DNA of 64,000 nt from Paracoccaceae bacterium. Lineage in GTDB: Bacteria; Pseudomonadota; Alphaproteobacteria; Rhodobacterales; Rhodobacteraceae. Every line of letters begins with the position of its first letter. Position 1 is the stretch's first letter. The stretch spans positions 5,391,436 through 5,455,435 of the forward strand of contig OZ241882.1 in NCBI GenBank assembly GCA_965203255.1, read 5' to 3'. Of this stretch, positions 3,645 to 55,103 are shown piece by piece. The position numbers and the translations under genes are program-made. Below the pieces are notes generated by a model. It did not search any database, had not been told where the DNA came from, and saw only the letters and a list, made by a program, of their open reading frames with translations.

Positions 3645-4150
3645 TGCTGAGAGAGTTGGACACAGGGTGCAAAACGATGAACGCTATTGACAGACGAATT
3701 GCAGATTATGGACTGGACCTGCCGGAACTGCAGCCACCACTTGCCGCGCTGCTCGTGCCAACGCGCCTGCTTGGACGGCGTTTGATTGTTTCGGCCCAAC
3801 TTCCAAAATTGAATAACAAAGTGGTCTACACCGGTCGACTTGGAGAAACCGTCGATTTGGCAACTGGTTGTGCAGCCACCCGACTCTGTGCACTGAACGT
3901 GCTGGCGCAGGCACGCGCCGCACTTGATGGCGATCTGGGTCGAGTGGAAGCAATTGCGCAAGTCCGGGGTTATGTCAGCGTTGCACCGGGGTTCGATCGG
4001 ATTGCAGAGGTGGTAAACGGCGCATCGCAGGTTATGTTAGATATATTTGGGGAAGAGATCGGTGCCCATTGTCGAACATCGATCGGCGCTGCCAACATGC
4101 CCTTTAACGCCACCGCTGAAGTCGAGGCTGAATTTTTTTTGCGTGCCTGA
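3644..4150 (+). CDS. RidA/YjgF family protein (possible enamine/imine or aminomuconate deaminase)
   Basis: The length and C-terminal pattern RTSIGAANMPFNATAEVEAEF are typical of RidA-fold proteins. TAATG junction with the ALDH gene. The true start may be the ATG at 3677 (MNAIDRR). Confidence 0.75.
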   Translation: MLRELDTGCKTMNAIDRRIADYGLDLPELQPPLAALLVPTRLLGRRLIVSAQLPKLNNKVVYTGRLGETVDLATGCAATRLCALNVLAQARAALDGDLGRVEAIAQVRGYVSVAPGFDRIAEVVNGASQVMLDIFGEEIGAHCRTSIGAANMPFNATAEVEAEFFLRA

Positions 4151-4325
4151 TTTCCTGTTGAATTGGATTTGTCCTTCAAGACTCAGGTCGCAGGTCCAGC
4201 AAGAGCTTCGTCGGCAGTCCATGAATGGGTTTTCCGCTCTGCAATGTGTTGATATTGAATGCTTTCAAGCAACCTCAAGATCGGGTATATGGTCATCTTG
4301 ACCCGACCATTTCAAGCAAATGGGG

Positions 4326-4440
4326 CAAATTAAGGGGATTATATACTTAACTGAACACGCAACAAATTATGGTAATAATGACAGTTTTGAACAACAACGC
4401 GTTGTATTCAATTTGGTTAAGTATATAATCCCCCAAATTA
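4326..4440. repeat. AT-rich nested palindrome
   Basis: GGGGATTATATACTTAAC (4334-4351) is the exact reverse complement of 4416-4433. An inner 12-bp palindrome ACAACGCGTTGT sits in the loop. Confidence 0.6.
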
Positions 4441-4446
4441 AACATT

Positions 4447-4506
4447 GCCAGCCCGTGAACGCATGGCAGTTGTTTAGGGATTGCCAGAAGTGTTCACAGG
4501 GAAAGG
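4447..4506 (+). repeat. Copy A of a ~60-bp direct repeat (probable solo IS1595-family terminal sequence)
   Basis: gcca.cccgtg..cgcatggca..tgttt.agggattgc..gaagtgttca.agggaaag aligns at roughly 85% identity by eye with 6928-6990. Confidence 0.55.
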
Positions 4507-4669
4507 CTTATCCCTTTGACTACGGCACCGCAACATGCTGTGCCGGCGGTCTGACGGCCGGTTTCCCGGATTCCGGCGGAATCCGGGCCGCCGCCGCCAC
4601 GCGGCGGTCCGTCCGGAGCCGGAAGGATCGGGATTCGGGGGGACTGGGGGTCGGCGCCGCGGGCCGGAG

Positions 4670-4932
4670 CCTTTCAACTGGACACTGTTAACTCGACGCT
4701 GGCCTAGCCGCGCATTGCCGGATCATGTCCGAGGCAGCGAAAGGAACGGATATCCGTCCCGGATATTCCGTGATTCCAGCATGGGCTGACGTTCCGGCGG
4801 CATGGATCCGGTGAATTGCGTGGTCCTGGCTGTGAATTCCGGACCGGTTCGGCCCAGCCCGGCCGGTTCCTGTGGACTGGGCCGCCCGTGTACACGAAAG
4901 GGACATCGAGTTAACAGTGTCCAGTTGAAAGG
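4670..4932. repeat. Perfect 27-bp inverted repeat enclosing 209 bp, inside a GC-rich block (~4527-5030)
   Basis: CCTTTCAACTGGACACTGTTAACTCGA (4670-4696) is the exact reverse complement of 4906-4932. Confidence 0.8.
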
Positions 4933-5164
4933 GACGGGGCGGAGTCTGGGTGTGGGCCCGCGGACGTCAGGCTGCCGCGTCAGTGAGGTCGCGGTAAGTG
5001 GCGGGCGGCAGCCCGATGCCGTAGAAAAACAATGACTTATGAGTCAAACTCTAAGTTCAATCGCGTGACCTTCTGCGGACTGGCCATTCTGCCGGCCTAG
5101 GCCACTCGCTCGTGACGATTCGATTTGGGTCCGGCCCCAGGGGCCGGAATCGCAGAGGACATCC

Positions 5165-5755
5165 TCAGCTCATGTCGTACACGTCCGTCCAGCTTGCGCC
5201 CGCCTCGGCACTTGTCGCCTGCCGTTCAAAGGGATCCCTTTGAATGTTCCGACCTGCAGCTGAGAGTTCCATATGAAGAGCCTCAGCCGAAGGAATCACG
5301 CCCATCCGTTCCATGCCAATCAGAAACGACCAAGTCGTGATCTTCGCTATGCGCGGGCCGAAATCCATGCTCTTGACCTGATTGTCCTCGAACAGCAAGA
5401 GCCCGTAATCCGAGGCTCCCAGGGTATCTCTCAGGGTGTTCGAAAACTGCCAGATGGATGTTTCCCCGGCATCCTTGATCCGTTTGCGGAGGGACTGTTG
5501 ATCCGGGGGCAGAGCATTCCAAAGCAGGCCGATGCTCGTTTCGATTTTCTGGATCCTGTTGCCACCCTTATGGAACCAATCACTGAAAATCATCGCGTCA
5601 GGGGCCCCCGGCATTCCCCGCAAGACCTCGTCCACAACCATGTCCGTGATCACGACAGGACAATTGAAGCGATCAAGAAGATCCAACCGATCTATTCTGC
5701 CCAGGGATATAAGCGGGCCGCTGTCAGGAATCGCCAGCTGAAGAGCCACCGCCAA
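5165..5755 (-). CDS. PIN-like (DUF3368-type) toxin candidate
   Basis: The N-terminus IPDSGPLISLGRIDRLDLLDRFNCPVVITDMVVDEV matches the DUF3368/PIN consensus (SGPLIxLxxIxxLdLL...iP..V..E). It overlaps the upstream small ORF. Confidence 0.6.
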   Translation of the reverse strand: MAVALQLAIPDSGPLISLGRIDRLDLLDRFNCPVVITDMVVDEVLRGMPGAPDAMIFSDWFHKGGNRIQKIETSIGLLWNALPPDQQSLRKRIKDAGETSIWQFSNTLRDTLGASDYGLLLFEDNQVKSMDFGPRIAKITTWSFLIGMERMGVIPSAEALHMELSAAGRNIQRDPFERQATSAEAGASWTDVYDMS

Positions 5756-5975
5756 CCGTCTCCATCATCCTTAGGATCGGCATTGCCACTTCAAGCTCCG
5801 CCTCGACCTGCGCCCAGGACGGCTTCGGGGGCGCGATGCCACGGTCCGCCAAGGCATTCAGAAGTTCCGAGTAGGATTCCATGTGCAGGTTCTGCATTGT
5901 TTCTTCACGAGAAGTCTCTCCCGCAACGAAACTGTCGATAACCTGTGTGGTGGTCAGCAAGGTCTCCATCTCCAA
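5724..5975 (-). CDS. UPF0175-like antitoxin candidate
   Basis: 83-aa ORF immediately upstream of, and overlapping, the PIN-like gene. The C-terminal SYSELLNALADRGIAPP resembles the UPF0175 HTH tail. Confidence 0.45.
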   Translation of the reverse strand: MEMETLLTTTQVIDSFVAGETSREETMQNLHMESYSELLNALADRGIAPPKPSWAQVEAELEVAMPILRMMETVGGGSSAGDS

Positions 5976-6927
5976 TTCTGCCTTGGGCCGTATAGCAACT
6001 TCCGGTTCGCCAAGGAAGAGACAAAGAGCATTCCGGCGAGAGATGGCGGAGCGAATTCCAGAAGGCCATCGGTTGGATGCAGCGATTGAAACCAGTGGCG
6101 CGGGTGCTTGAAAACGGATTCAGGCGTTCATTGACGGGGCCTTGCGGACCGGATTTCTCAAGGCTGGCGCAGACGGATTTGGCCGCGAGGGCAAGGGTGC
6201 TGGGGATCATGGTCAAAGCCAGAATGAAGCTGGCGGAGGCCATAGAGATATGTTCGCTATCCCGGATATCCGCTTCCACGACAGGCAGCACTGGACGGCT
6301 TTGGAACCGACCGACGCCAGGAGATGTCTTCGAACACTCGCGGCCATCGCGTTGATGCTGGAACGGTATTTCGAAGCAGTCACCGGATGAGCCTCATCGA
6401 AGACGGCCAGCGATACCCGATCAGTCGGGCGGAGCGAATCATTCTCGGTAGCCACTTCCAATGCAGCTATCTTGCCGAAATTGACAACGACAGACCCGTT
6501 CCTCTCATTCGCCGGATTGGATCGTTTGGTTTCCCAATGCTGCCAGAGACCGGCTTCCGAAATCCCTGTCGCCAGAGTTCTCCAACAATCATCGAGTTCA
6601 TTAGTGCTTGATTGAACGGCTTGAGGTTATCAACAAACAAAGCCATTCTTGAGAGTCCCTTGCCTTGGCTTTGGGAGCGACAACCTACCGGAACAGGCTC
6701 CGGCATGCCCAGCGGGCCAGGCGGTATGGTGCGGCCGTGAGAAAGTTGCGCAATAGGGCTGATGTGAATCGGGTGGTGAAGTCGAATCACGATTTGCAAA
6801 TTGCGGACGGGAATCATATGTCCACAGCACAAAGAGAGGAGACGGATATGAGCGTCGCCTCTGACTGGATCATGTTGGCAGGGATTGTCGCAGTCCTGAT
6901 CTGTCTTTGGAACTTGCATTGAGACAT

Positions 6928-36242: not shown

Positions 36243-36618
36243 GGAGACCTGTTGCCTAAACCGCTGCGAATCGTCAACCGTATGTCAAAAGTCGTTCACT
36301 CTCTGTGCGGCAAATCGGCTCTTGAGGCCTATCTCCCTGACCAAGGCGGTTTAGGATGTTGTGGCGGGTGCCGCGCGGTCGGATTTCCCGATCCGTTGCG
36401 GAGAACGCGCCAGTGCCGCCGCAGGGCGACCCCGACGGCAGGGAAGGAGGAGATTTCCGAGATGCAGGGGCTTCTTGAGGGAGCGAGGCCGGGCTGCGCT
36501 TCAACGGCAGGGTCCCGGTGACCGGCATCACTGTGATGCCACCGGAGACCGAGGGACTGTTGGAGGTTGGCACGCCCGCCGCGCCGATGATCGTCATCAT
36601 GCTGATGATGGTGTTGGC

Positions 36619-37935
36619 CTACACGGTGGTGGCTTCGAGCAGACGCAATCGGCTGCGGTAGCCGCCAACGATTGAGTCGGTAAGCGCGGCCGGAAAGCCC
36701 TCGGGCAATGAGTCGACCGTATCGGCTATGGCCTTCTCGCTTTGGTTCTGCAGGTCAGTAAAAATCCCTCGGATAATGCTTTCGCCCATGCCACAGGCCT
36801 CGGCAGTTTGGAGGAAATGCCGCGGAGCGATCTTGTGAACTGGGTAATGGCGCTTCTTTCCCACTGCCATCGCCATCTTCATCTGCCGGCGCCGTAGCTG
36901 CTTCGCATCGTAGAGTGGCTGAGCCGACATAACATCGTAGAACGGAGTCACAGAGAATCGGCCGCGCGGATGCAGAAACAGGCTGATGTTTTTGGCATGG
37001 CCGTCGGTCGCGGCCAACAGCCAAAACACAATCGCGGCTTTCATGATTAGCCGTTGATCGTGAAGAGGCTTGTCGCTGCTTGCGAACAAGCCGATCAGAC
37101 CAGAAAGTCCGGGGCCGCCATCACTCTCATATTTGCGGGTTGGCGGAACCGACAGCGCTTGACAGCAATCTTCCTGTGGCAGGCGCAGAAGCCGCTTGTC
37201 TTTGGTCCATAGACGGTCAAACCGTTCCACGACCAGCACCTTCCTGTTACCAAAGCTGGTGATCGCGGTGCCGGCAGTCGGCAGGCCGAGCGCGTTCATG
37301 AGGCTCGTGCATAGGTGCTCGTTCTCAACTGAGAGCGAGAGATCGACACCGTCCGACCGTTTGCCAATCTCCGGCTTGAATATGTGGGTGGTGGCCGTCG
37401 TGCCGTGCGGAATGTGCCAATGACCCTGCCAGTGGAGCAGGGCGGTTTTTTCCTGATCGCCTGCCAGTGAAATCCGGAACTCTTCATCCTCGCCGATGCC
37501 GAGCGGGCTGCTTGCCAGACTGCCTAGCAGGGTAGCAACCTCATCATCGGTGACCGGCCGCGCATCAATCCCGCCGGCCGGTCCCGGCTCCATGTCTTCG
37601 GGTAGGAACTGTAAAGCGCCGACGCAGTCACGGCCTATTGCACTCAGCAGACTGAAAGCGTCGAAGCCGTCGGTATGCGCTCGCTCAGCCACTTTGCGCA
37701 GGATGTCGGGGCTATCCGGCAAAAGGTTTTCAAACACGGCGGTCACTGGCGCACCGATGTAACGATCCTCGCGCAGTGGCAGCGACAGAGAGATCGGGAA
37801 GGCGTTTCCCCAAGACAGCCAGCTGTCATCATACTGGAAGTCTACGGCGCCGCTCGCGGCCTTGCGCAGCCGACCAACCGGGCGGCTGTTCAGGTAGACA
37901 GATAGCGGGGGATGCGTCCGACTCCGGGCCATCAA
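36619..37935 (-). CDS. hipA: HipA-family serine/threonine kinase toxin
   Basis: 438 aa. N-terminal coupling domain (LSVYLNSRPVGRL...FQYDDSWL), LAGDQEKTAL, and a catalytic region DGHAKNISL. Confidence 0.85.
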   Translation of the reverse strand: MMARSRTHPPLSVYLNSRPVGRLRKAASGAVDFQYDDSWLSWGNAFPISLSLPLREDRYIGAPVTAVFENLLPDSPDILRKVAERAHTDGFDAFSLLSAIGRDCVGALQFLPEDMEPGPAGGIDARPVTDDEVATLLGSLASSPLGIGEDEEFRISLAGDQEKTALLHWQGHWHIPHGTTATTHIFKPEIGKRSDGVDLSLSVENEHLCTSLMNALGLPTAGTAITSFGNRKVLVVERFDRLWTKDKRLLRLPQEDCCQALSVPPTRKYESDGGPGLSGLIGLFASSDKPLHDQRLIMKAAIVFWLLAATDGHAKNISLFLHPRGRFSVTPFYDVMSAQPLYDAKQLRRRQMKMAMAVGKKRHYPVHKIAPRHFLQTAEACGMGESIIRGIFTDLQNQSEKAIADTVDSLPEGFPAALTDSIVGGYRSRLRLLEATTV

Positions 37936-38911: not shown

Positions 38912-39063
38912 GGCGACCAGAGTGCCGGTACCCCACGCCCGCAATCCCTCAGGACGCCCCCGCATCCCCGCCTTCCCCGCCGTCAGGGTCGCCCCACGGC
39001 GGCGCTGGCGCGTTCTCCGCGACGGATCCGGGAATCCTGCCGCATGGCACCCACCACAACATC

Positions 39064-40595
39064 TTATGCCGATTTGGCCAGAGGAGCCTCTTGCACAATT
39101 ATCGCGGTTCGGGCTTGCGCTGCAAGCCTTTGGGTTCCTTCAGGGGCGCGGCACCGGAACTGACGGGTGCCCGGGGCGTTTCCACCGACTTGGGTGTGGC
39201 GGAATGCCGCAGTCTGTGGCCCGTCGGGCACCGTCCGCGCATGGCTGGCCGCGCCGTCCCCTCCGGGGCGGCGTCCGCGGCGTCCGGTGCTGCCGCGGCT
39301 GGTGGCGTCAGATGGTGAGCCGCATCAGCTGCCCGCCCGTCAGGGCCAGCACGCCGAAGAACAGGTGGCAGGCCACCCTGGCGTGCCCCCGGACGCGGAC
39401 GTGCCGGGCGCCGTAAGAGTCCTTCAGGGCGGAGTTCACGCGCCCGCCGCTGGAGCGCTGCCGGTAGCGGACGCGGTCGTGGCGTATGTGGCCCGCTTTC
39501 CTCTGCGCCAGCGCCTCTTTCCCGAGGCGCTCCCTCAGCGCCGCGTCGCGGCGGGGGTTGGTGTCGGTGACCGCCACGCGCCCCGTCAGGCAGGCGTGGA
39601 ACCCGATCTCCAGGGAACCGTGGCCGCGTCCATGAGCTCGTGGCAGTGGTCCACCCGCAGCGCCGTCATTTTCGACAGCGGGATGGCGGCCTGGCTGTCG
39701 TGCAGCGACGCCGAGGTCAGGATGCAGCTGACGGGGACGTCCCCATCGGCGGCGTCGATATGGAGCCTGTACCCCCTCCAGCTCTCCCTGTACCCCTTCG
39801 CGTTGCGCTTCGTGCCGGTGCCGCAGGCCTTCGGCAGCCCGTCGGCCATCTCCGCGGCGGTCATCCCGTCCCGCAGCTGCCGCTCCAGCCGGGTCGGCTC
39901 CTTCGGCCTCTCCTCCCCCTTTCCCGGGCGTCCGCGCTTTCGCTTCGGTCCCTCCTGCGGCTTCGGCTTCGGCGCCGGCCTCTCCCGCCCGACGATCGCC
40001 GTGGAGTCCCGCGATATGTGTCCGACGACCGAGCCGGCGTACGCGGCGCGGACCAGCGCCCCGTGCATCCGCTCCGGCAGCCGGGTCTCCGCGAACCAGG
40101 CGAAGGCGCGGGAGAACGCCGGTTCGCTGGGAACCTCCGATACGCGGGACCAGCCGACGGGCCTGCGCAGCGTCGGGTGGTGGCGCAGCCTGTCGACCGT
40201 CACCACCGTGGCCGGCATGTCCCACACCGCCCTCCCGACGAAGGCCCGCGCCAGCGCCCTGCGGTCGGCGGCAGGGTTGCCGACGCCCCCGTGGCTGTAG
40301 TGCACGTGCCTCTCGACCTCCACCAGGTCCAGGACGGCGACGGACCTGCCGTGCCTCACGCCCAGCGGCCCGACCTCCCCGGCGAGGGCCGGCAGAAGTT
40401 CCCCTTGAAACCGCTGCCAGGCATCTGATATGGAAGAACGTAGGGACATGGAGCCGTCTCCCCGTATGTAGTGGCTTTCACACCTGCTCCATACTAGAGG
40501 GACGGCTCCATATCCAGGCCATCCATCAGAAAAAGCGTCCGTTTCCGAAAAAAACCGCTTGATCGGGAAGTTCTGCAAGAAGCTCAGAGGATAAG
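39064..40595 (-). mobile_element. IS4-family insertion sequence (approximate ends)
   Basis: Imperfect terminal repeats CTTATGCC...GAGCCTCTTGCACAATTATCGCGGTT (39064-39108) pair with the reverse complement of 40543-40595, CTTATCC..GAGCTTCTTGCAGAACTT..ATCAAGCGGTT. They enclose the transposase frames. Confidence 0.55.
39308..40449 (-). pseudogene. IS4-family DDE transposase with a -1 frameshift
   Basis: From the ATG at 40449 the frame reads ...GYRLHIDAADGDVPVSCILTSASLHDSQAAIPL...HELMDAA and then stops. The next frame continues GSLEIGFHACLTGRVAVTDTNPRRD...RYRQRSSGGRVNSALKDSYGARHVRVRGHARVACHLFFGVLALTGGQLMRL. One missing base near 39620-39623 would restore DAAYGSLEI. Confidence 0.7.
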
Positions 40596-45808: not shown

Positions 45809-46096
45809 TGCAAACCAGTTGACTTGGTAAACCGGATTGTGTTTTCGATTGCGATCTCAACGACGTGTTCAGAGAGATCGGTCTCGTTCCGTCGACCTAT
45901 CGGAAGGCTGGATCCGGGGTGCTGATATTCCTTGGCGGGTTGGCGTGACGGTTGATTCTCTGGAGTTACAGCTGCGACGTCCACCATCAATTCAATTGTT
46001 TCACAGGAACGTTCCCCCGCCACAACTTGTTGCACCATCGTCATTCCCTTGCACCGAATCACCGGCGAAGGCAAACGCCGACGCGTCTCATGGCAT

Positions 46097-46323
46097 CTGG
46101 CCGGCGCACCGTTCAGGCAGCGCAGTTCGTGCCGGGCGCCGTCGGCGTCGGTGAACCGGGCCGCGCGTGTGCCGGGTTCCGCGCCGGGGACGGAGCGGAG
46201 GCCGTGCCGCCGCAGGCGGGCGATGCGGGGCCCGTTGGAGGCGGGGCCGTCCTGCGGGACGATGGCCTTCAGGCGCCGACGCTCCCGCCGGAGGCCGTCG
46301 ACGGACCGCGCCGCGGCGTTGCG
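46097..46323 (+). repeat. Left copy of an inverted homologous GC-rich repeat bracketing the 47.5-53.5 kb island
   Basis: Aligns by eye at roughly nine in ten positions with the reverse complement of 53813-54069, apart from one ~29-bp indel. Confidence 0.75.
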
Positions 46324-47490
46324 CCCGCAGCCGTTCCTCCTGTCCCCGCCGGTCCTGGCGACCGGCTCCGGGGCCAGCGGCGGCGCCTCGCGGCGTTCCG
46401 GGTGGCGGACCACGGCGGCGGGCGTGCTGTGGGAGTGGCTCCCCGGCCCGTCACTGTGGCTGGCGACGCGGCGGTGGTGGCGGTGGACGGACCTCGGGCC
46501 GGGTGGCCGGCGCCGTCGACCGGGATCAGGCAACGGCCGTCGAGAACCGGCTGGCCCTCCAGCGCCCTGCCGCGCCGCAGCCCTGCGGACAGGGTCCTGA
46601 AGACCGGTGGCGGCCGCCTGGGGCCGGCCGTGCCGGGGCGCCTGCGCATGGGGGGGTCGCAGGGCGCCGCCGCGGTCCCGGACAGCGTCCGGAGGTTCCC
46701 GCGGACGATGGCGTCGCCGCGGCTGTCCCTGCCGGACCGCGGGAGCGACGGATACTTCAGCGGGAACATCGCGGACGCCGCCATGAGGTGGTCCCCAGGG
46801 CCGGACCGGCGGTCCCGCCGGAACATTCCGCCAGCGCCCCGACCGGCCCGGGCCTGCCGGGGTCCTTCCGGAACCGCATCGTCCCAGCTCCCGTCAGTGA
46901 GGCCAGCACGGATGCGGCAAGGGCAGGAGCCTATGATGTCCAGAGGATTCCGGGCGGTTTCCGGCCGCCGGGAAGGAAAGGTCCACCAAACCCGGATCAC
47001 GGAACCCCATGGAATACAGAGTCCGGAAGGGCTGGTGGGAATTGCTGGCGGCCCGGTCGCCGCTCGCCCGAATAACGCGAGCCGCCATTCTCTAACGGTC
47101 TCCAAGCCCTCGCGCGTCGGTTCAAGAAAGTCTGAGTTATTAGTTGGCGCTCCGCCGCTTCGAGTGCCGGGGCGCCCCGGATGTCCAGCCTGTTGTGGAG
47201 AACGGTGTCGTCAGGCGGATGCGGATAGCAGGAGTCGCGGTCGCTCATCCTGCCGTGTCGGCGCGGCCGCGATCTTCGATCCAGAGGAGGATACGGGTGC
47301 GCCGCTGCTCGGGCGACCACCCCTCGTGCTTGAACATCTCGACAAGGAGTAAGTTGGTGTGGGGTCAGCAATTGACGTCGCAGCGTGGCATGAGGTTGAC
47401 AGACACACCGGACTAGGCCACGTTCTATACGGCAACTACGCTGATCGCCGACATGGGCGAGAATGGCGCTGACTTGCTGAGGAGGCGGAA

Positions 47491-48228
47491 ATGAAAGCGG
47501 ATATTGAGATCGATGGCACTAAGTACGACGTTGCAGCCGGTTTGGTCAGCGCTCAAGTAATCTATGACTTGGTCGGATGTGACGGCGGACGTCTTTTTCT
47601 TAACCAAGAGGATGACATCGATATTCCGCTCGACTCTGCCAGCTTTATTATAATTAGAGGGCAAGAGTCGTTTGTGACCGGAGAGAGTTCGATTGAAGAC
47701 AATCCGCCACTACGAAAAACAATCCAGCTTAAGCTAAATGGCGAACTAGGCCCAACGCTGCCGAAGGCAATAATTACTGGGAAAGAACTCAAGGCGTTTG
47801 ACACTGAACACTCGGAAGGTCGTCTCTTTGCTGACATTGGTACTGGGCCAGATGCAGAGATAGCAGACGACACGAAGGTTCTGGTACAGGAAGGAAACGC
47901 CTTCTTCGTGATTCCAGCAAGTGACGGTTCTGGTGCTGGAGATCCGATAGACATCGAGAATTGCAGCCGACATGGCCGCCCACCACCTAAGGGGCAAAAA
48001 TATCGAATCAGGATCGATCGAGACAAATACACTATTGAGGAAGAAAAGATCACGGGTATGCAAATTTTGGCACTAGCTGAAAAGACGCCAGAAGAATGGG
48101 CGTTGAACCAGAAGCTAGTAGGAGGGAAAAGAGAACGGATCAGGGCAGACGACTTCGTTGACGTCTCACTACCCGGTGTCGAGCGGTTTGAGACCGTTCT
48201 CCGTCAGGCGCAGCAAGGACGTGAGTGA
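47491..48228 (+). CDS. Multi-ubiquitin-like protein with three tandem beta-grasp (Ubl) repeats
   Basis: Strong RBS GAGGAGG. There are three ~65-aa repeats with the same pattern: IEIDGTKYDV...SAQVIYDLVG...; LKLNGELGPT...TGKELKAF...; IRIDRDKYTIEEEKITGMQILALA.... The C-terminus is ...QQGRE. Confidence 0.65.
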   Translation: MKADIEIDGTKYDVAAGLVSAQVIYDLVGCDGGRLFLNQEDDIDIPLDSASFIIIRGQESFVTGESSIEDNPPLRKTIQLKLNGELGPTLPKAIITGKELKAFDTEHSEGRLFADIGTGPDAEIADDTKVLVQEGNAFFVIPASDGSGAGDPIDIENCSRHGRPPPKGQKYRIRIDRDKYTIEEEKITGMQILALAEKTPEEWALNQKLVGGKRERIRADDFVDVSLPGVERFETVLRQAQQGRE

Positions 48229-48610
48229 CGCCTTTGAACTGCTCCCGGAGGACGTTGAGTACCTTGATGCCAATCATCGAGGTCGATGGCGAAAACTCAA
48301 CGAAGGGAGTGGAAAGTACGGCCTTCTAATTGAGGGTTTTGCTGTTCCGGCTGGGTTCGCGCACTTAACAGCAGACCTTATGGTCCTGATACCTGCAGGG
48401 TATCCTGCATCTCCATTGGATATGTTCTATCTTGATCCACCGCTAAGTAAGTTGAACGACCAAGATGCGGGAGCGCTTTCAATCGAGGAACATTTTGCGC
48501 GTCGATGGCAGCGGTGGTCCAGGCACTATGGGTGGAGGCCGGGCGAGCATGACCTTACTTACCATATCGAATATGTCTGGCACGAACTGCAAGTAGCCGG
48601 CGCGAAATGA
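48221..48610 (+). CDS. E2/UBC-fold protein (Prok-E2_E-like) without any cysteine
   Basis: LMVLIPAGYPASPLDMFYLDPPL is the E2/UEV-type 'YPxxPP' flap. It is followed by RWQRWSRHYGWRPG. There is no Cys in the whole ORF. The GTG start at 48221 overlaps the Ubl stop. Confidence 0.6.
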   Translation: MSDAFELLPEDVEYLDANHRGRWRKLNEGSGKYGLLIEGFAVPAGFAHLTADLMVLIPAGYPASPLDMFYLDPPLSKLNDQDAGALSIEEHFARRWQRWSRHYGWRPGEHDLTYHIEYVWHELQVAGAK

Positions 48611-49998
48611 AACTCCTGACACTAGCGATGACTAGACGAACGCATGAATTGGCGTTCCGATACCTCTTTCCTGGAGATGGATTGGAGGCCGCGGGTGTCT
48701 TTATATGCAATCAAGGATCAGGGAAACATCATCAGAGGCTTGTAGTGGCAGAGTTTGTCGGGCTGTCTTACCCATTGTCTGACAGACGCGTAAACAAGGT
48801 TACGTGGCCGTTCGAAGCACACTTCGCGCCAGACACGATCACCAACATTGATCGGCTGGGCCAATCTGTGATTACAGTTCACTCCCATCCGAATGGCGGC
48901 AACGAATTCTCAAAAATTGATGACGAGAATGATCGGGAACTATTTGCGTCAGTGAACGCGTGGTTTGATGACGGTAGAATTAATGGTGCGGCGATTATGT
49001 TACCGGATGGATTGGTTGTGGCGAGGTCGGTAGAGGAGGACGGTCAGTTTCGCGGCTTCCGTTCAGTCAATGTTGTGGGCGATAACATCTTAATTTGGAG
49101 CAGCAAGGAACGAAAGCGCTCAACTGCATATGAGAGGAAGTTGTCTCAAACATTTGGAGGGGGAACGCTCAATCGACTACGTACAATGAGAGTGGGGGTG
49201 GTGGGCTGTTCAGGAACTGGAAGTATTGTGATTGAGCTATTGGTTCGCAACTGTGTTGGACAGCTCGTGATTGTTGATAATGATGTTCTTGAGGAGAAGA
49301 ACCTCAACCGGATCATGAATGGTTCAGTAGTGGATGCCAAAAACAAACGATCAAAGGTGGAAGCGATTAGGGGGGCAGTTGAACGAACTGGACTTGGGAC
49401 CCAGATCGATGCGTATGATGCGTTGACCGACTCTCCGGAGGTCGTATCAGCACTAGTCGATTGCGATGTGCTCTTTGGCTGTGTGGACTCGGCCTTTGGG
49501 CGGTATCATTTAGAGTGTTTAGCCAGTGCGTATCTGATTCCTTATTTTGATGTCGGAGTGCATATAGCCGCCGACGGGACGGGAGACATCGGTGCTGCCG
49601 ACGCAGTGTCTCATTACGTCCACCCAGATGGGCGCGATTTGTGGTCTCGTGGTGCATACCACATGGATCAGGTGACAGCGGAGAATTGGCAACGAGCGGA
49701 CCCGGGGCACTACGAACGACAGCGCGTCGCTGGATACCTAGCGGCGGTGGGAGAGGAGCAACCGGCAGTAATGTCGGTGAACATGCAGGCGGCATGTATG
49801 GCGTTCAACGACTTTATCGCGCGAGTGCACGCATTTCGGTTTGACCTAGATCGTGACTTTGCTACCCAACGATTTCGCTTGGTTCACGGTTGTTTTGAAT
49901 CCGAAGCGGATGACGGGAAACCACATCGGCTGTTTGAACGGTACCGAGGTACCGGTGACAACAGTCTGCTTGTGCGGAACAATATTCGCCGTGATTAG
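48607..49998 (+). CDS. JAB/JAMM deubiquitinase-like domain fused to an E1/ThiF-like adenylation domain
   Basis: Exact JAMM motif HSHPNGGNEFSKID (HxHx7SxxD). Then a Rossmann motif RVGVVGCSGTGSIVIELLVRNCVGQLVIVDNDVLEEKNLNR and CDVLFGCVDS, which are typical of ThiF/MoeB/E1. ATGA overlap with the E2 gene. Confidence 0.75.
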   Translation: MKLLTLAMTRRTHELAFRYLFPGDGLEAAGVFICNQGSGKHHQRLVVAEFVGLSYPLSDRRVNKVTWPFEAHFAPDTITNIDRLGQSVITVHSHPNGGNEFSKIDDENDRELFASVNAWFDDGRINGAAIMLPDGLVVARSVEEDGQFRGFRSVNVVGDNILIWSSKERKRSTAYERKLSQTFGGGTLNRLRTMRVGVVGCSGTGSIVIELLVRNCVGQLVIVDNDVLEEKNLNRIMNGSVVDAKNKRSKVEAIRGAVERTGLGTQIDAYDALTDSPEVVSALVDCDVLFGCVDSAFGRYHLECLASAYLIPYFDVGVHIAADGTGDIGAADAVSHYVHPDGRDLWSRGAYHMDQVTAENWQRADPGHYERQRVAGYLAAVGEEQPAVMSVNMQAACMAFNDFIARVHAFRFDLDRDFATQRFRLVHGCFESEADDGKPHRLFERYRGTGDNSLLVRNNIRRD

Positions 49999-50356
49999 GT
50001 GGCTGTTCAACCAACTGGCTAAACGGCATCCGTACAGAACGGAGTGGGTGGAGGACCTGCCTGAACGCGTAGCGAGGGATACGGTCTACATCATAGGGGG
50101 AAAGAAGTATCCATTTCAGGCTGCGGTAGTATGTCCTCGGCGCCGATGCCGGCAGATCATCCACTTGGACATATCACCCGAGTTGCAAAAGCGGTGGCTG
50201 ATAACCGAGCATCCGGGCGGCGAGGTATCGTTGCACCCATCCGTGCACGTGACAGGGCGTAGCTGCAAATGTCACTATTGGCTGCAGCGCGGAAGGATTC
50301 GCTGGAGCGGAACGCCGAGCATTTTCGTGCCGAGGGAGAACAGGGATGATTCGTAG
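49991..50356 (+). CDS. DUF6527-like zinc-ribbon protein
   Basis: VVCPRRRCRQIIHLD...LHPSVHVTGRSCKCHYWLQRGRIRW fits the C..C ... PS....C.(C/S)H.w...G.I.W pattern I associate with DUF6527. The GTG start at 49991 overlaps the E1 stop. Confidence 0.5.
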   Translation: MIRWLFNQLAKRHPYRTEWVEDLPERVARDTVYIIGGKKYPFQAAVVCPRRRCRQIIHLDISPELQKRWLITEHPGGEVSLHPSVHVTGRSCKCHYWLQRGRIRWSGTPSIFVPRENRDDS

Positions 50357-51236
50357 GGTCATCGTAAGCCGGTTCAAGAAATTTCACCTTTTCGACTCCA
50401 ACCTGGAGGAGCGGATGGTTATTGCCGGTCCGAACAATTCGGGTAAGTCGACGCTATTGCAGGTTTTGGCGACCTGGGCGGAGCTGGGTGAGATTTGGTT
50501 GCGGAGTATTGCAGACCTAGGTTGCCAGGATTATCAGAGATTGCACCGCGTGGAAGTGAACGTTGCCAGCCTCGGGACGTTGGCGCTGTCTAGCTTCGAC
50601 CAGTTGTGGCATAATCGGGATACGAGAGAGCCGATTACCATCAGAGTATTGGCGGACGACTGGGACGTGGGTTTCGAACTCAGCTATCAGGATGCGACGA
50701 CCGCCATCGTGGAGCCGTTGACAGACATATCGGCACCGCAGCTTGATGCTTATGCGAATAACCCGCCGAAGGCACTCTACGTTCCGTCACTATCAGGATT
50801 GGATATTGACGAGCCCGAATATAGCGAAGGAGTAGTCACCACACGACTGGCTCACGGCAAAGGCGGAATGGTTCTTAGGAATATGGTTCAAGCCACAAGC
50901 CGTGACGATGCAAAATGGCGTACGCTGCAGAATACAATAAAGTCGTTCTTTGGTTTTGAACTTTCGAGACCAAGTGGTGTCGATCCGATAACGGTGCGGT
51001 ACAGGCACTCGGTAACGGACCATTGGTACGATCTGCTTAATGGTGCCGCAGGCTTCCTGCAAACGTTACTAGTGCAGTCCGCTCTCTTGCATTCGAGCGC
51101 GACGCTGTTTCTCATTGATGAGCCGGATGCTCATTTGCACGTGTTGCTCAAGGCGAAGATGTACCGCCTCATACGTGAGCACTGCGACGAAAATGACTGT
51201 CAGGTGCTGATCGCAACCCACTCCGGCAGCATCCAT
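50346..51236 (+). pseudogene. 5' part of a fused AriA/AriB (PARIS)-like ABC-ATPase/Toprim gene, interrupted by IS110
   Basis: Walker A GPNNSGKST, Walker B/D-loop LFLIDEPDAHLH, and H-loop IATHSG. Protein-like sequence ends at ...GSIH (codon CAT at 51234-51236), where the composition switches to GC-rich IS DNA. The start overlaps the upstream gene by 11 nt. Confidence 0.7.
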
Positions 51237-51438
51237 GTTGGAAATCAAGCCCGGATCCGGCTTTTTTCCGACTTTTTCCCGGTTTTTCCGCGGTTCCGTG
51301 TCCGGCTGTCCCGGACCTTTCCACAGCGTTCCCCACAGGCGGCGGCGTCCGGGCGCGCCGAAGGGCCCGCCGGGGAGACCCCGGCCGGCCCGCCGGTGAT
51401 TCGCTTTCGGTGCCGGACGGACGCGGTCCGGCCTGCCG

Positions 51439-52383
51439 TCAGGCGGCGGCCGCCGTCCGGTCCTCCCACATCCGGCGGTCGCGGAGAAGGGCGCTGGCGG
51501 TCACGACCAGCCTGCGCATGACGGCGACGGGGGCGACTTTGTGGGGCTTTCCCCTCTCCCGGAGCCGTTGGTACAGTTCCCTCATGTCCGGGGAGCACCT
51601 GCTGGCCGACAGCGCGGCCATATAGACGACATCCCTCGGCCTGCGGCGTCCGCCGCCGATGTGGCGCCCGCCCTTCAGGGTGCCGCTGTCTCGGGCGAAG
51701 GGGGCCACGCCGAGCAGGGATGCGGCCTGGCGGTTGCCGATGGCGCCCAGCTCGGCCATCCATGCGACCAGCGCCGCGGCGGTGACGGGGCCGATGCCGG
51801 GCACCGAGGTCAGGATGCGGTGGCTGTCGGCGAACTCCGGCGATGCGGCGACCGTCCCGCCGATCCGCCGCTCCAGCGCCACGATGGCGGCGTCGATGTC
51901 CTCGAGGACCCTGCCGACCTCCGTGCCGGGTGCGTCGGCGCCGACCTCCGACACGACGGTCCCCGTCCCGGCGCGCTGGTCCACGAGCTTCTCCCGCAGC
52001 ACCAGCATGTCGCGGAGCCGGTCGATGGCACCGGTGGCCGGCGCCGTGGCCCGCATGTCCGGGAACGCGGCCCCGAAGGCCGCCAGTATCCTGGCGTCCA
52101 CCCTGTCGGTTTTCGCAAGGGCCCCGGCGGCCTTCGGGAGATCCCTCGCCTGCCTCGGGTTCACGACGGTGGCGGAGAACCCCCTGGCGTGCAGCGACTG
52201 CAGAAGCGCCCGGTGCATGCGTCCCGTGGCCTCCATGACGGCCCGCGTGGCGCCGCCCTCCCTGAGGAGGCGGCCGACCTTGCGGAAGCCGACCGTGTCG
52301 TTGGTGGCCGTGAAGTCACGCCCGTTGACGTGGATGTTGAGTGTACGCTTGCTTACGTCGATTCCGGCGACTATGGCTGTCAT
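51439..52383 (-). CDS. IS110-family (DEDD) transposase/recombinase
   Basis: N-terminus IVAGIDVSKRTLNIHV. The C-terminus ...RGKPHKVAPVAVMRRLVVTASALLRDRRMWED is typical of IS110. Confidence 0.9.
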   Translation of the reverse strand: MTAIVAGIDVSKRTLNIHVNGRDFTATNDTVGFRKVGRLLREGGATRAVMEATGRMHRALLQSLHARGFSATVVNPRQARDLPKAAGALAKTDRVDARILAAFGAAFPDMRATAPATGAIDRLRDMLVLREKLVDQRAGTGTVVSEVGADAPGTEVGRVLEDIDAAIVALERRIGGTVAASPEFADSHRILTSVPGIGPVTAAALVAWMAELGAIGNRQAASLLGVAPFARDSGTLKGGRHIGGGRRRPRDVVYMAALSASRCSPDMRELYQRLRERGKPHKVAPVAVMRRLVVTASALLRDRRMWEDRTAAAA

Positions 52384-52700
52384 GCTCTCCCGCTCCTATC
52401 CTCGCGATGATCCGGTTCCGTGAACCCAGGCATCCATCCAGGACCCGGGAGACGGACGGGAGGGCGGGCCGACCACGCTGCCGGACGGATCCGCTGTCGC
52501 GATCCAAGGCCGTATCGGTCCAACCCGTCCTGCGGGGCAGGGCCCCGCACCGCCGCCGCCGGTAGTGGTCCGACGGCGGCGGTCCCGCCACAGGAATGAA
52601 CCGGAGGGACGGCGGAAGGCAACAGGCATGTTTTCCACAGGAAATCGCGCCAGATTTTTCCACAGCCACCTCCTCCTTTCATTTCTGATTCTCTGAACAT
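52384..52700 (-). ncRNA. Candidate bridge (guide) RNA region in the IS110 5' non-coding end
   Basis: A ~317-nt non-coding, hairpin-rich segment upstream of the recombinase, where IS110-group elements are reported to encode a bridge RNA. It contains GCATCCAT (52430-52437), identical to the 8 nt abutting the left junction (51229-51236). Confidence 0.3.
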
Positions 52701-53489
52701 ACGAGGCTGATCGGGGAAGCGGCGAGCGAAAAAGGAGAGAAACTGTTTCTTGTCACTGCAAGCGGTCTTAGGCCAGTTCGTAGGCAGGAGGCGGAGCAAC
52801 TGTTAACTATCTCTAGCGAGGAAATCGTATTGGCGGAAACAACGCAGCGGGTGGTGTATTTGGAAGGAAAGACTGATATTGATATTTTGCGGGAATGGGC
52901 AAAGGCGTTGGATCACCCAGCATGGCAGTACTTGGACAAAGGTTTCTGCGTGCCAACCGCGGAAGGGACGAGTCGAACTTATGCTAAAAAGCACTATCGT
53001 GCACTAAAGGCGCAAGTCCCGACGCTGCGCGCGTTGGAGGTGTGTGATCGAAATGGAGCCAAAGGCGAGCACTGGGATGACCTAGGGCCGGGCGAATTAC
53101 GTACGGAAGAGGGACGTAGGAATACGCCGGAAGGAATGAAGGTATTATACTGGACCCGCTATGAGATCGAAAACTATTTGATCCATCCGAGTGCGATATT
53201 ACGGTTTATCTCGCGGCGTATGGGAAAGGCGGCGAAAGAAGCGGCGGGAGAATACATGGAAAAATACTTACCTCGGGTGCTAATGGAAAGACCATTCGAA
53301 ACCACAGATACCGATCAGATCAAGGGCAAAAAAACAGTCGGTAGAATTCTGAGCGTGGCGGGGGTAGAGCTTGGAGAGTCGGACTACTTCCAAATCGCTG
53401 CTGAGATGTCGGCCAATGAAATACATCCGGACGTCGTAGCTATGCTGGACGAAATAGCGGCTCAACTGACTAGTGTAGCGCCATCGTAG
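52701..53489 (+). pseudogene. 3' part of the AriA/AriB-like gene: linker plus DUF4435/Toprim-like domain
   Basis: An open frame without a start codon runs from 52689: ...HTRLIGEAASEKGEKLFLV...EEIVLAETTQRVVYLEGKTDIDILREWA...ALEVCDRNG...WTRYEIENYLIHP, which are DUF4435/OLD-Toprim-like motifs. It is in phase with the 5' part if the IS is removed. Confidence 0.65.
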
Positions 53490-53812
53490 CAATGACGGTT
53501 CTGCCTGGCTGTCTCCCGGTATCATGCCGCCTTTGCCGGCGTCAGGCAACAGGCGGGCGATGGGAGAGGCGGCGGGGCAGACCGCCCCCGGCCCGCATCA
53601 TGGAACGGAGCGGACCATGGCACAGGAGACGGGGACTCCCGGAAAGGAACGCAGGATATACCGGATCCGCCTTTCGGATGGCGGGAGGGCGGGGCGGCGG
53701 CGTACAGGCGCCGGCACGCCCGGATCCTGCCGCTGGCCGACGGGGCCCGTGACGACGGGGGCCGCACCGGTTCCGGCATCGCGCCGGTCCTGAAGGTCGG
53801 CGTGTCGGCCGC

Positions 53813-54069
53813 CGCAACGCCGCGGCGCGGTCCGTCGACGGCCTCCGGCGGGAGCGTCGGCGCCTGGAGGCCATCGTCCCGCAGGACGGCCCCGCCTCCA
53901 ACGGACCCCGCATCGCCCGCCTGTGGCGGCACGGCCTCCGCTCCGTCCCCGGCGCGAAGCCCGGCGGCCACGCGCCGCCGTTCGCCAGCCCCGGCACACG
54001 CGCGGCCCGGTGCACCGACGCCGACGGCGCCCTGCGCGAACTGCGCTGCCTGAACGGCGCGCCGGCCAG
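53813..54069 (-). repeat. Right copy of the inverted homologous GC-rich repeat
   Basis: This is the reverse-complement match to 46097-46323 (see the left copy). Confidence 0.75.
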
Positions 54070-54772
54070 CGCCTCCCGTCCCGACATCGGGGCCAGCGTC
54101 ACCGGATGCCGGGAGACGGTCACCAGAAGGAAATGCGTCGCGGGGCGCCACCGCGGTCCGGACGGCCCGGCCCACCGGGGCGGGGGGAAACGGAAGGGGC
54201 TCCCCTGGGTCACCGACCTTCCCGTGGACGGCGGCAGCCCCGTGCCGGCCATGCGCGCCGCCCGCTCCCGCTGGCGCACCGGGAACGGGACCCCGGCACG
54301 CCGGGGAACCAGGGCCACCGCTCCGGGACCGGCTTCGGGCACGGAAAGCGGCGCCTGACCAAGGTGCCCGCCATGACGGTGACGCCCGCGTTCCCCACCG
54401 ACCGGACCGGGGCCGCCTCCCGCAGGGTGTTCGCCGCCGCGCCGGGGCGAGGGGGCGGACGGGGTGCCTCCGGGAGGGAACCCGGCAGTGCTTCCCCGGC
54501 TTCCCGGTCCCCGACTGGCGGACCCTCCACCCCGCCCTGACCCACGGGCACGCGGCGGCGGCCTTGGCCGTCGCCGGGCCGTCCGGACGGTCGCCGCCGC
54601 GGCGCGGGGCGCCCAGGCGCGCCTGGGCGCCCGACCGAGCCGCCCACGGGCAGACCCGCGACACATCCCCTTTTTCCGCCGGAACGCCGCCGGAGGCTCC
54701 CGCACGCCCGGATTCCGCCCGAATCCGACGCCGACGCCCGCGCCACGCCGGAAACCGGACCGGAATCTCACT

Positions 54773-54791
54773 GGTGGGAATTTCTGTTTGG
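54773..54791 (+). repeat. ISKra4-like terminal-repeat motif at the edge of a GC-rich block
   Basis: GGTGGGAATTTCTGTTTGG versus the ISKra4 IRL GGGTGTGATTTCTGTATGG: 16 matching columns by eye. A 12-mer GAATCATGCGAC further inward (54851-54862) also occurs at the stop-codon end of the intact ISKra4 transposase. Confidence 0.3.
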
Positions 54792-55103
54792 ATCCCGAGT
54801 CGATGTGGAGTACCTTGGCTGACGTACGTTTTGGAACTCGGTCTTCCGCATGAATCATGCGACTTGGTGTCAGGCCGATACCCGCGAAGAACGCGTGCTT
54901 CTCCTCGACCTTCCTGAACGGCAGCCGGAAGTGACTGTGATCCGCCTCCGCGCTCACTATGGAAATCCGGTTCAGCGAGCGCAGCCTGCGAAGAACCGCA
55001 TCAATTGCAACGCGCTATCCGGCAAGAAGTCGCAGAAAGCTGCACTTGGGTCGTCGCCTGCATGGAAATCGAGCAAGTTCAGCAAGCGGAGTTGGCACGG
55101 TTT

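Follow-up and report, generated by a model that had tools for sequence, protein, structure and literature searches.

A predicted cysteine-free Bub conjugation operon in a Paracoccaceae bacterium, of the Type I lineage but with separate bubA and bubB genes

Genes of the locus

A stretch of 64,000 nucleotides from the genome of a Paracoccaceae bacterium (GenBank assembly GCA_965203255.1, contig OZ241882.1, positions 5,391,436 to 5,455,435 of the forward strand; hereafter the window) carries a cluster of four overlapping, translationally coupled open reading frames (ORFs) on the plus strand between positions 47491 and 50356. We call these genes bubA, bubB, bubCD and bubE, after the bacterial ubiquitination-like (Bub) operons, formerly termed 6E or DUF6527, with which we compare them below. 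An initial annotation made from the letters of the window had drawn attention to this cluster because its E2-like protein and part of its E1 domain appeared to lack the cysteine residues on which such enzymes usually depend.

The domain identities and the order of the genes are direct observations, as are the homology to solved Citrobacter proteins and the conservation of each residue named in this report. The first gene, bubA (47491-48228), encodes a 245-residue precursor of a ubiquitin-like protein (Ubl), two stretches of which match the Pfam family PF14452 Multi_ubiq (E=2.6e-20). It runs into bubB (48221-48610) through the sequence ...CAA GGA CGT GAG TGA, within which the bubB start codon, GTG at 48221, lies in a different frame from the bubA stop codon at 48226-48228, making these two separate, overlapping genes. 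From that GTG, bubB encodes an E2-like protein of 129 residues (PF14462 Prok-E2_E, E=1.9e-25). An ATGA sequence at 48607 joins bubB to bubCD (48607-49998), whose 463-residue product combines two domains in one frame: an N-terminal JAB/JAMM metallopeptidase domain (48607-49101, about residues 1-165; PF14464 Prok-JAB, E=3.4e-6) and a C-terminal ThiF-type E1 adenylation domain (49129-49998, about residues 175-463; PF00899 ThiF, E=8e-22). The last of the four, bubE, encodes a predicted serine peptidase of the DUF6527 family (PF20137, E=1.5e-13). Its longest ORF, of up to 167 residues, spans 49853-50356 and overlaps the 3' end of bubCD by 146 nucleotides (49853-49998). Because the bubE start lies only about 20 nucleotides ahead of the E1 stop codon in many relatives, the true start is probably later than 49853, between 49910 and 49991. 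A scan of the operon for promoters and terminators yielded nothing above shuffled expectation. PADLOC holds no model matching BubA, BubB or BubE, and its Cap2-type models match the adenylation core alone, weakly.

BubA ends in AQQG followed by Arg-Glu and the stop codon, with the last residue of the motif, Gly243, encoded at 48217-48219. The same ERFET..AQQG ending is kept in 69 related loci, where it is followed either by a tail of 0-6 residues or by a fused E2. Within these 69 loci, all of which have both genes, bubA and bubB are split in 49 and fused in 20, the split BubA proteins ending in AQQG plus 0-6 residues, and the E2 stands alone in 86 of 150 distant E2 representatives. Given these two proportions, the comparative data mark the separation of bubA and bubB as a common and evolutionarily labile state, not a defect. 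A frameshift or pseudogene as the cause of the split was considered and rejected, as the split recurs in 48 other loci, often with an identical QQG-RE-stop/GTG overlap, and a stand-alone E2 of 129 residues is the commonest form. A search with BubA against PDB sequences, including the solved BubA fragment, gave no match at E<0.01.

In four of the related loci (L043, L048, L062 and L064, with E1 at about 5001-6390), BubA ends exactly at the conserved glycine, and the JAB active site of BubCD is intact. Since a BubA protein of this kind has no tail to trim, the intact site hints at a role for the JAB domain beyond precursor processing, such as deconjugation.

Residues at the E1 and E2 active sites

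A Bub operon of Type I in Citrobacter sp. RHBSTW-00271, encoding BubAB, BubCD and BubE, has been studied by biochemistry and crystallography (Ye, Gong, Chambers and Corbett, bioRxiv 10.1101/2024.11.21.623953; PDB 9ea4, 9ea5, 9ea8, 9eae and 9eav, the last being the ternary complex). The crossover loop of Citrobacter BubCD is free of cysteine, and Y370 is its only invariant residue. In BubB, an invariant S333 occupies the position of the E2 cysteine, with H335 and D299 close by. Conjugation of BubA is lost both in vitro and in E. coli when Y370F or S333A/H335A substitutions are introduced, and is lowered by R227A, while with either JAB substitution, E28A or D104A, the BubAB precursor is no longer cut after G229. 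BubE, which removes conjugates, has a four-cysteine zinc site and a weak Ser-His peptidase activity (S92, H102) that is lost in the S92A and H102A mutants. The authors concluded that the pathway proceeds via Ubl~Tyr and Ubl~Ser oxyesters (Ye et al.).

The initial annotation had stated that the E2-like ORF of the window lacks cysteine even when read from its longest start, and this proves correct. No cysteine is encoded from any of the possible starts (TTG 48158, which is the longest alternative, GTG 48176, TTG 48188 and GTG 48221), or anywhere in the open frame from 48122 onward; the 129-residue form, with the same start position, is the one annotated for most bubB homologues. At the cysteine frequency of 1.13% that we counted over 32 long ORFs of the window, however, a protein of 129 residues is expected to be without cysteine by chance about 23% of the time, and therefore the bare count of zero is unremarkable. 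The absence becomes meaningful only because BubB has an E2 fold and because its homologues possess no conserved cysteine column.

Evidence for the fold and for the catalytic position comes from two comparisons. First, a phmmer search of PDB sequences matched BubB to Citrobacter BubB (9eae_C, E=6.4e-16), and the alignment places the WSRH of WQRWSRH on S333/H335 and the segment LDMFY on D299. Second, an AlphaFold2 model of BubB (pLDDT 90.7) retrieves the same chain as its top Foldseek match (TM 0.86, root mean square deviation 1.6 Å). The serine within RWQRWSRHYGW (residues 95-105, counted from GTG 48221), which had been put forward at the outset as a candidate E2 nucleophile, thus aligns exactly with the catalytic S333. 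We designate this putative catalytic residue Ser100 (48518-48520), and the residues expected to assist it are His102 (48524-48526) and Asp67 (48419-48421).

Conservation was assessed in three sets of sequences, namely 82 homologues at 39-88% identity (counts of 83), 70 E2 domains taken from genome loci, and 150 distant representatives that are less than 50% identical to one another. Ser100 is kept in 83/83, 70/70 and 148/149 sequences of these respective sets, His102 in 83/83, 70/70 and 145/148, and Asp67 in 83/83, 68/70 and 147/151. None of the three alignments has a conserved cysteine column, the most cysteines in any one column being 3, 6 and 14/151, and cysteine is wholly absent from 47 of the 82 close homologues. 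On this comparative evidence, BubB is an E2 of the Prok-E2_E type with an invariant or nearly invariant serine at the catalytic position and no conserved cysteine.

A similar picture emerges for the E1. The segment that follows the adenylation core, VSHYVHPDGRDLWSRGAY (residues 334-351), contains no cysteine, just as the initial annotation had claimed. BubCD has eight cysteines elsewhere (residues 34, 201, 216, 286, 292, 304, 397 and 429), none of which falls in the crossover-loop region at about residues 340-385. Its match to Citrobacter BubCD in the phmmer search (9ea4, E=2.2e-59) covers residues 6-437, and a profile built on 24 homologues raises this match to E=1e-85. In the crossover loop, the equivalent of Citrobacter Y370 is Tyr377 (49735-49737), which lies within ...RVAGYLAAVGEEQP... 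(VAGYLAAV). We anchored this mapping on the mutant sequences deposited as 9ea5 (D104A) and 9eav (Y370F), whose substitutions fall on Asp105 and Tyr377 of the window protein (PDB chain numbering equals the numbering of the paper plus 2). Tyr377 is kept in 122 of 122 homologous E1 sequences and in 67 of 67 taken from related loci, and no crossover-loop column holds cysteine in more than 3 of the 122.

The AlphaFold2 model of the E1 (pLDDT 74.9) contains a hairpin at residues 313-338, two short helices at 353-375 and a low-confidence coil at 372-384. Tyr377 lies in this coil after the two helices, in agreement with the loop described for the crystal structures. The first eight Foldseek matches to the model are BubCD chains (E about 1e-33, TM about 0.7, top 0.71), followed by UBA5, MccB and ThiF at E of about 1e-10. 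Thus compared, BubCD is a ThiF-type E1 with a cysteine-free crossover loop and an invariant tyrosine, as in the Bub pathway.

The catalytic sites that would precede this step are likewise recognizable. The JAB active-site residues Glu27, His92, His94 and Asp105 align with Citrobacter E28, H91, H93 and D104. All four are invariant in the 122 BubCD sequences; among the 67 loci, the two histidines are invariant, and Glu27 and Asp105 are each present in 66. The adenylation domain carries the nucleotide loop G200-C-S-G-T-G-S206 together with Arg235. At the other end of the operon, BubE has a putative catalytic dyad of Ser130 (50240-50242) and His141 (50273-50275) and a putative zinc site formed by Cys94, Cys99, Cys138 and Cys140. 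In 66 loci, Ser130, His141, Cys94 and Cys138 are invariant, and Cys99 and Cys140 are kept in 65 and 63, respectively. This pattern agrees with the four-cysteine site and the S92/H102 dyad described for Citrobacter BubE.

The initial annotation had also named a finding that would speak against cysteine-free chemistry, namely that the Cys-less state was a strain-specific mutation of an otherwise conserved cysteine. The homologue sets were examined for this, and strain-specific loss is ruled out, as neither the E2 nor the crossover loop of the E1 has a conserved cysteine column in any of them. Because the Ser/His/Asp set and the tyrosine are conserved where a cysteine column is missing, the Cys-less state is ancestral to the family.

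Proposed cascade and competing explanations

Taken together, these observations lead us to conclude, with a probability of about 85%, that the region is an operon of the Bub family, Type I in kind, and encodes a protein-conjugation cascade that operates without catalytic cysteines. The transfer through non-thioester oxyester intermediates proposed at the outset, by analogy with Bub pathways, was the right frame, as the genes are clear homologues of Citrobacter BubB and BubCD. Of that original interpretation, the oxyester chemistry and the E2 serine have held up, whereas the suggestion of a non-catalytic E2 and the choice of E1 residue have not. The operon shares with Citrobacter Type I Bub its domain set and gene order, the fused JAB and E1 domains with their zinc-site and adenylation residues, the crossover-loop tyrosine (Y370, here Tyr377), the E2 trio S333/H335/D299 (here Ser100/His102/Asp67), the Ser-His dyad and four cysteines of BubE, and a Ubl that ends in a conserved glycine needing trimming.

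All chemistry that we assign to this cascade is carried over from the experiments on the Citrobacter and E. coli homologues, from which we predict that this operon would carry out ATP-dependent Ubl conjugation via oxyester intermediates. BubA would be made as a precursor ending in Gly243-Arg-Glu, and the JAB domain of BubCD (Glu27, His92, His94, Asp105) would trim the Arg-Glu tail. The ThiF-type domain would then adenylate Gly243 by using its GxSGTGS loop and Arg235, after which Tyr377 on the flexible crossover loop would accept the acyl group of BubA in a tyrosyl oxyester, or would at least be essential for the hand-off. The acyl group would move to Ser100 of BubB, again as an oxyester, with His102 and Asp67 activating the serine, and from there onto a lysine of the target. 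Finally, BubE, with its Ser130-His141 dyad and four-cysteine zinc site, would strip the conjugates. The covalent tyrosine intermediate appears to be the least secure step of this scheme.

Hence the alternative that fares best, although we consider it unlikely, concerns this very step. It holds that Tyr377 is essential without being a covalent carrier. BubCD would only adenylate BubA, and Ser100 would attack the acyl-adenylate directly, with the tyrosine positioning or activating either the E2 serine or the adenylate, such that the relay would pass through one oxyester. Even the Citrobacter work offers no direct observation of a covalent BubA~Tyr intermediate: no such species was isolated there, and the evidence consists of the loss of product with Y370F and of structure predictions. 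An adduct of BubA and BubCD still forms with Y370F, although it was judged to be off-pathway (Ye et al.). Moreover, Y370 lies against S333/H335 of BubB, not at the adenylate, in the Citrobacter crystal structures, tyrosyl esters of Ubls have no precedent, and the loop bearing Tyr377 is flexible and of low confidence in our model. However, a tyrosine with this supporting role alone fits less well with the absolute invariance of Tyr377 in both E1 sets, and with its location close to where the crossover loop ends on its C-terminal side, the position at which UBA5 and (as judged by eye) MoeB carry their cysteine. Furthermore, published AlphaFold predictions put the tyrosine hydroxyl 3.7 Å from the alpha-phosphate of adenosine monophosphate, and the same tyrosine is invariant in Type II BubBD. 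We favor the two-oxyester relay, in which Tyr377 would itself be acylated.

A second alternative, in which BubB would be a non-catalytic, UEV-like adaptor and serve only to bind the Ubl or the E1, goes back to the initial annotation and now seems very improbable. It draws on the lack of cysteine in BubB and on the Foldseek search, in which the matches after BubB include the UEV domains of Vps23 and Tsg101 beside true canonical E2s, none of them significant (E>0.3). A UEV is recognized by a degenerate, unconserved active-site position, but BubB has Asp67, Ser100 and His102 at its active site, and these are wholly or almost wholly conserved across over 300 sequences, with identities reaching as low as about 31%, which far exceeds the need of a binding module. 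Ser100 also aligns with the residue located where the E2 catalytic cysteine sits, and the S333A/H335A mutant of the homologue loses conjugation.

Equally improbable is a conventional thioester on Cys397 of BubCD, which would mean that the E1 step in this clade is not cysteine-free. This residue is kept in 118 of 122 and in 66 of 67 sequences and sits 20 residues after Tyr377. Yet the Citrobacter enzyme, which is active in biochemical assays, and a few others have serine at this position, and in the E1 model Cys397 is part of the long helix (386-408; NMQAACMAFNDF) after the loop and not of the mobile loop itself. Five further, equally conserved cysteines are scattered through the E1 core and are evidently structural. 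The chance that the E1 nucleophile is a serine rather than a tyrosine is smaller still, be it Ser347 of DLWSRG, as the initial annotation had suggested, or Ser335 of VSHY: although Ser347 is found where the flexible crossover region begins (pLDDT<50 at 345-349) and is serine in most close homologues, it is Ser in 90 and Ala in 29 of the 122 sequences (Asp in Citrobacter) and Ser in 55 and Ala in 8 of the 67, the figures for Ser335 are Ser 89 and Ala 31 of 122 and Ser 38 and Ala 26 of 67, and a catalytic nucleophile is not expected to be alanine in a quarter of otherwise intact operons. The residue that the Citrobacter experiments implicate is the tyrosine equivalent to Tyr377.

Several points besides the elusive tyrosyl intermediate and the clade-conserved Cys397 count against our conclusion that this is a working Type I cascade. 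Identity to the Citrobacter proteins is modest (E2, about 33-40%; E1, about 31-40%), and the case for conjugation activity in this operon and its clade is borrowed from those homologues. The ATPase gene coupled to the operon is broken by an insertion sequence, as described below, which may leave the entire system without function in this genome. In addition, the published definition of Type I calls for a fusion of Ubl and E2 (BubAB), and the bubA and bubB genes of the window are separate. The tail of its BubA also extends only 2 residues past the glycine, another difference from the Citrobacter fusion. We therefore class it as a Bub operon that belongs to the Type I lineage but has bubA and bubB unfused, and not as Type I in the strict published sense. 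Its place in the lineage follows from its closest relatives in sequence, from the fusion of JAB domain and E1, and from the Ser+His+Asp signature.

Type II Bub operons have the same cysteine-free chemistry, with a crossover-loop tyrosine and an E2 serine, and likewise encode a DUF6527 peptidase and a stand-alone Ubl. However, their E2 is fused to the E1, they lack a JAB domain, and their serine is accompanied by Lys and His, whereas in the window the E2 is free, JAB and E1 are fused, and the Ser+His+Asp set is that of Type I. The Bil (bacterial ISG15-like) systems and the Cap2/Cap3 proteins of Type II CBASS resemble the window operon in using bacterial E1, E2 and JAB conjugation machinery in defence contexts, and the window adenylation core indeed matches PADLOC Cap2 'E1-E2' models weakly (E about 1e-10) and Cap2 structure 7to3 by Foldseek. 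Unlike the window proteins, however, these systems employ catalytic cysteines and thioesters. The likeness is confined to the adenylation core, and the E2 has no significant match among them.

MoeB, ThiF and UBA5, which are minimal homodimeric E1-like enzymes, share the Rossmann-type adenylation fold and the nucleotide loop and provide the best matches outside the Bub family. They carry a crossover-loop cysteine and CxxC zinc motifs, neither of which is present in the window E1, which in turn has an extra beta-hairpin (residues 313-338) and the N-terminal JAB domain. After its core, MoeB (1jw9_B) reads DGEPCYRCL...ALTCVEAGV, and the window protein reads PDGRDLWSRG...VAGYLAAVGE at the place that corresponds by eye. 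The HMMER alignment of the E1 tail with MoeB, ThiF and UBA5 stops at about residue 313, and the CxxC and catalytic-cysteine positions were placed by eye.

Genomic setting and the coupled ATPase gene

Immediately downstream lies a fifth gene, whose start codon (ATG 50346) overlaps the bubE stop codon and which encodes an ABC-type ATPase similar to OLD, AriA and GajA. Its 5' part (50346-51229, plus strand, about 295 codons) matches Pfam AAA_21 and AAA_15 and is interrupted after ...IATHSG by an IS110-family insertion sequence of about 1.47 kb on the minus strand (51230-52703). The transposase ORF of this element (51439-52383) matches DEDD_Tnp_IS110 (E=6e-19) and Transposase_20 (E=6e-18). The 3' part of the ATPase gene (52704-53489, plus strand) encodes the C-terminal domain, and these residues, about 260 in number, have no Pfam match. 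They align with the C-terminal 260 residues of an intact 558-residue orthologue in one related locus (L001), which matches the PADLOC models for NsnB, AriA/AriAB, GajA and Old and the OLD-family structure 6p74 in the PDB. The two parts are in frame once 1,476 bp are removed, and an AG dinucleotide is present at both junctions of the insertion.

In blastn comparisons with three uninterrupted loci (L003, L004 and L007), homology breaks off at 51229 and sets in again at 52704. For the related loci as a whole, nucleotide homology covers 47344-51229 and 52704-53474 and ends there. An ATPase ORF lies directly downstream of bubE in 54 of 72 related loci. This arrangement is a difference from the Citrobacter operon; neither Bub preprint mentions an ATPase. 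The encoded protein could be a sensor or effector partner of the Bub pathway.

On either side of the cassette lies a block with 77-82% G+C (46050-46950 and 53600-54800), against about 57% G+C for the genome. These blocks share an inverted repeat (46097-46328 versus 53808-54069, 85-95% identity) and show strong three-base periodicity, with up to 97% GC at one phase. A search of the whole window against Rfam and of the ORFs in the blocks against Pfam gave no match. The genes around the cassette are ordinary metabolic and transport genes. Elsewhere in the window, inverted repeats (36333-36454 and 38964-39086, 82% identity) enclose a HipA-type toxin gene (36619-37935, minus strand), next to another GC-rich block (38-40 kb, 67% GC).

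Relatives of the operon in GTDB genomes (loci L003-L074) come almost exclusively from metagenome-assembled genomes and have 45-92% protein identity, most at least 57%. Many bear names of the sponge-symbiont type, including Poriferihabitans, Porisulfidus, Latescibacterota, Dadabacteria, Nitrospirales, Rhodothermales, Binatia and Paracoccaceae. Because relatives this similar occur in many phyla, their distribution implies horizontal transfer of the operon across phyla within one habitat. Two relatives have defence-type neighbours, namely TIR/ThsB, HepT/NTase and an S8 peptidase with AAA. The context suggests that the Bub cassette is a mobile, defence-type cassette; published work found no protection against phages by Bub and left the biological role open. 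In one related Paracoccaceae locus (L069), about 875 bp are inserted where bubB meets bubCD (4110-4985) and the E1 is split over several frames; this locus is probably a decaying copy.

A relay from E1 to E2 that does without cysteine is among the most unusual chemistries of the ubiquitin world. It was described in 2024, with structures released in 2025, and the present locus adds no new principle to it. What the locus does add is independent comparative support, in that the Tyr/Ser/His/Asp set is invariant or nearly so over several hundred sequences from many phyla. It also indicates that the fusion of Ubl and E2, on which the definition of Type I is based, is variable.

The recurrent OLD-like ATPase partner could help to reveal the biological role of Bub systems. 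We tentatively entertain, with the odds somewhat against it, the idea that unfused bubA and bubB, bubCD, bubE and the coupled OLD/AriA/GajA-like ATPase make up a distinct five-gene Bub subtype that has spread horizontally among sponge-symbiont-type bacteria of many phyla, with the ATPase as its sensor or effector arm. If this is true, the intact JAB domain in operons whose BubA already ends at glycine would mean that this domain does more than process precursors, and the ATPase would offer the first concrete lead to the purpose of Bub conjugation.

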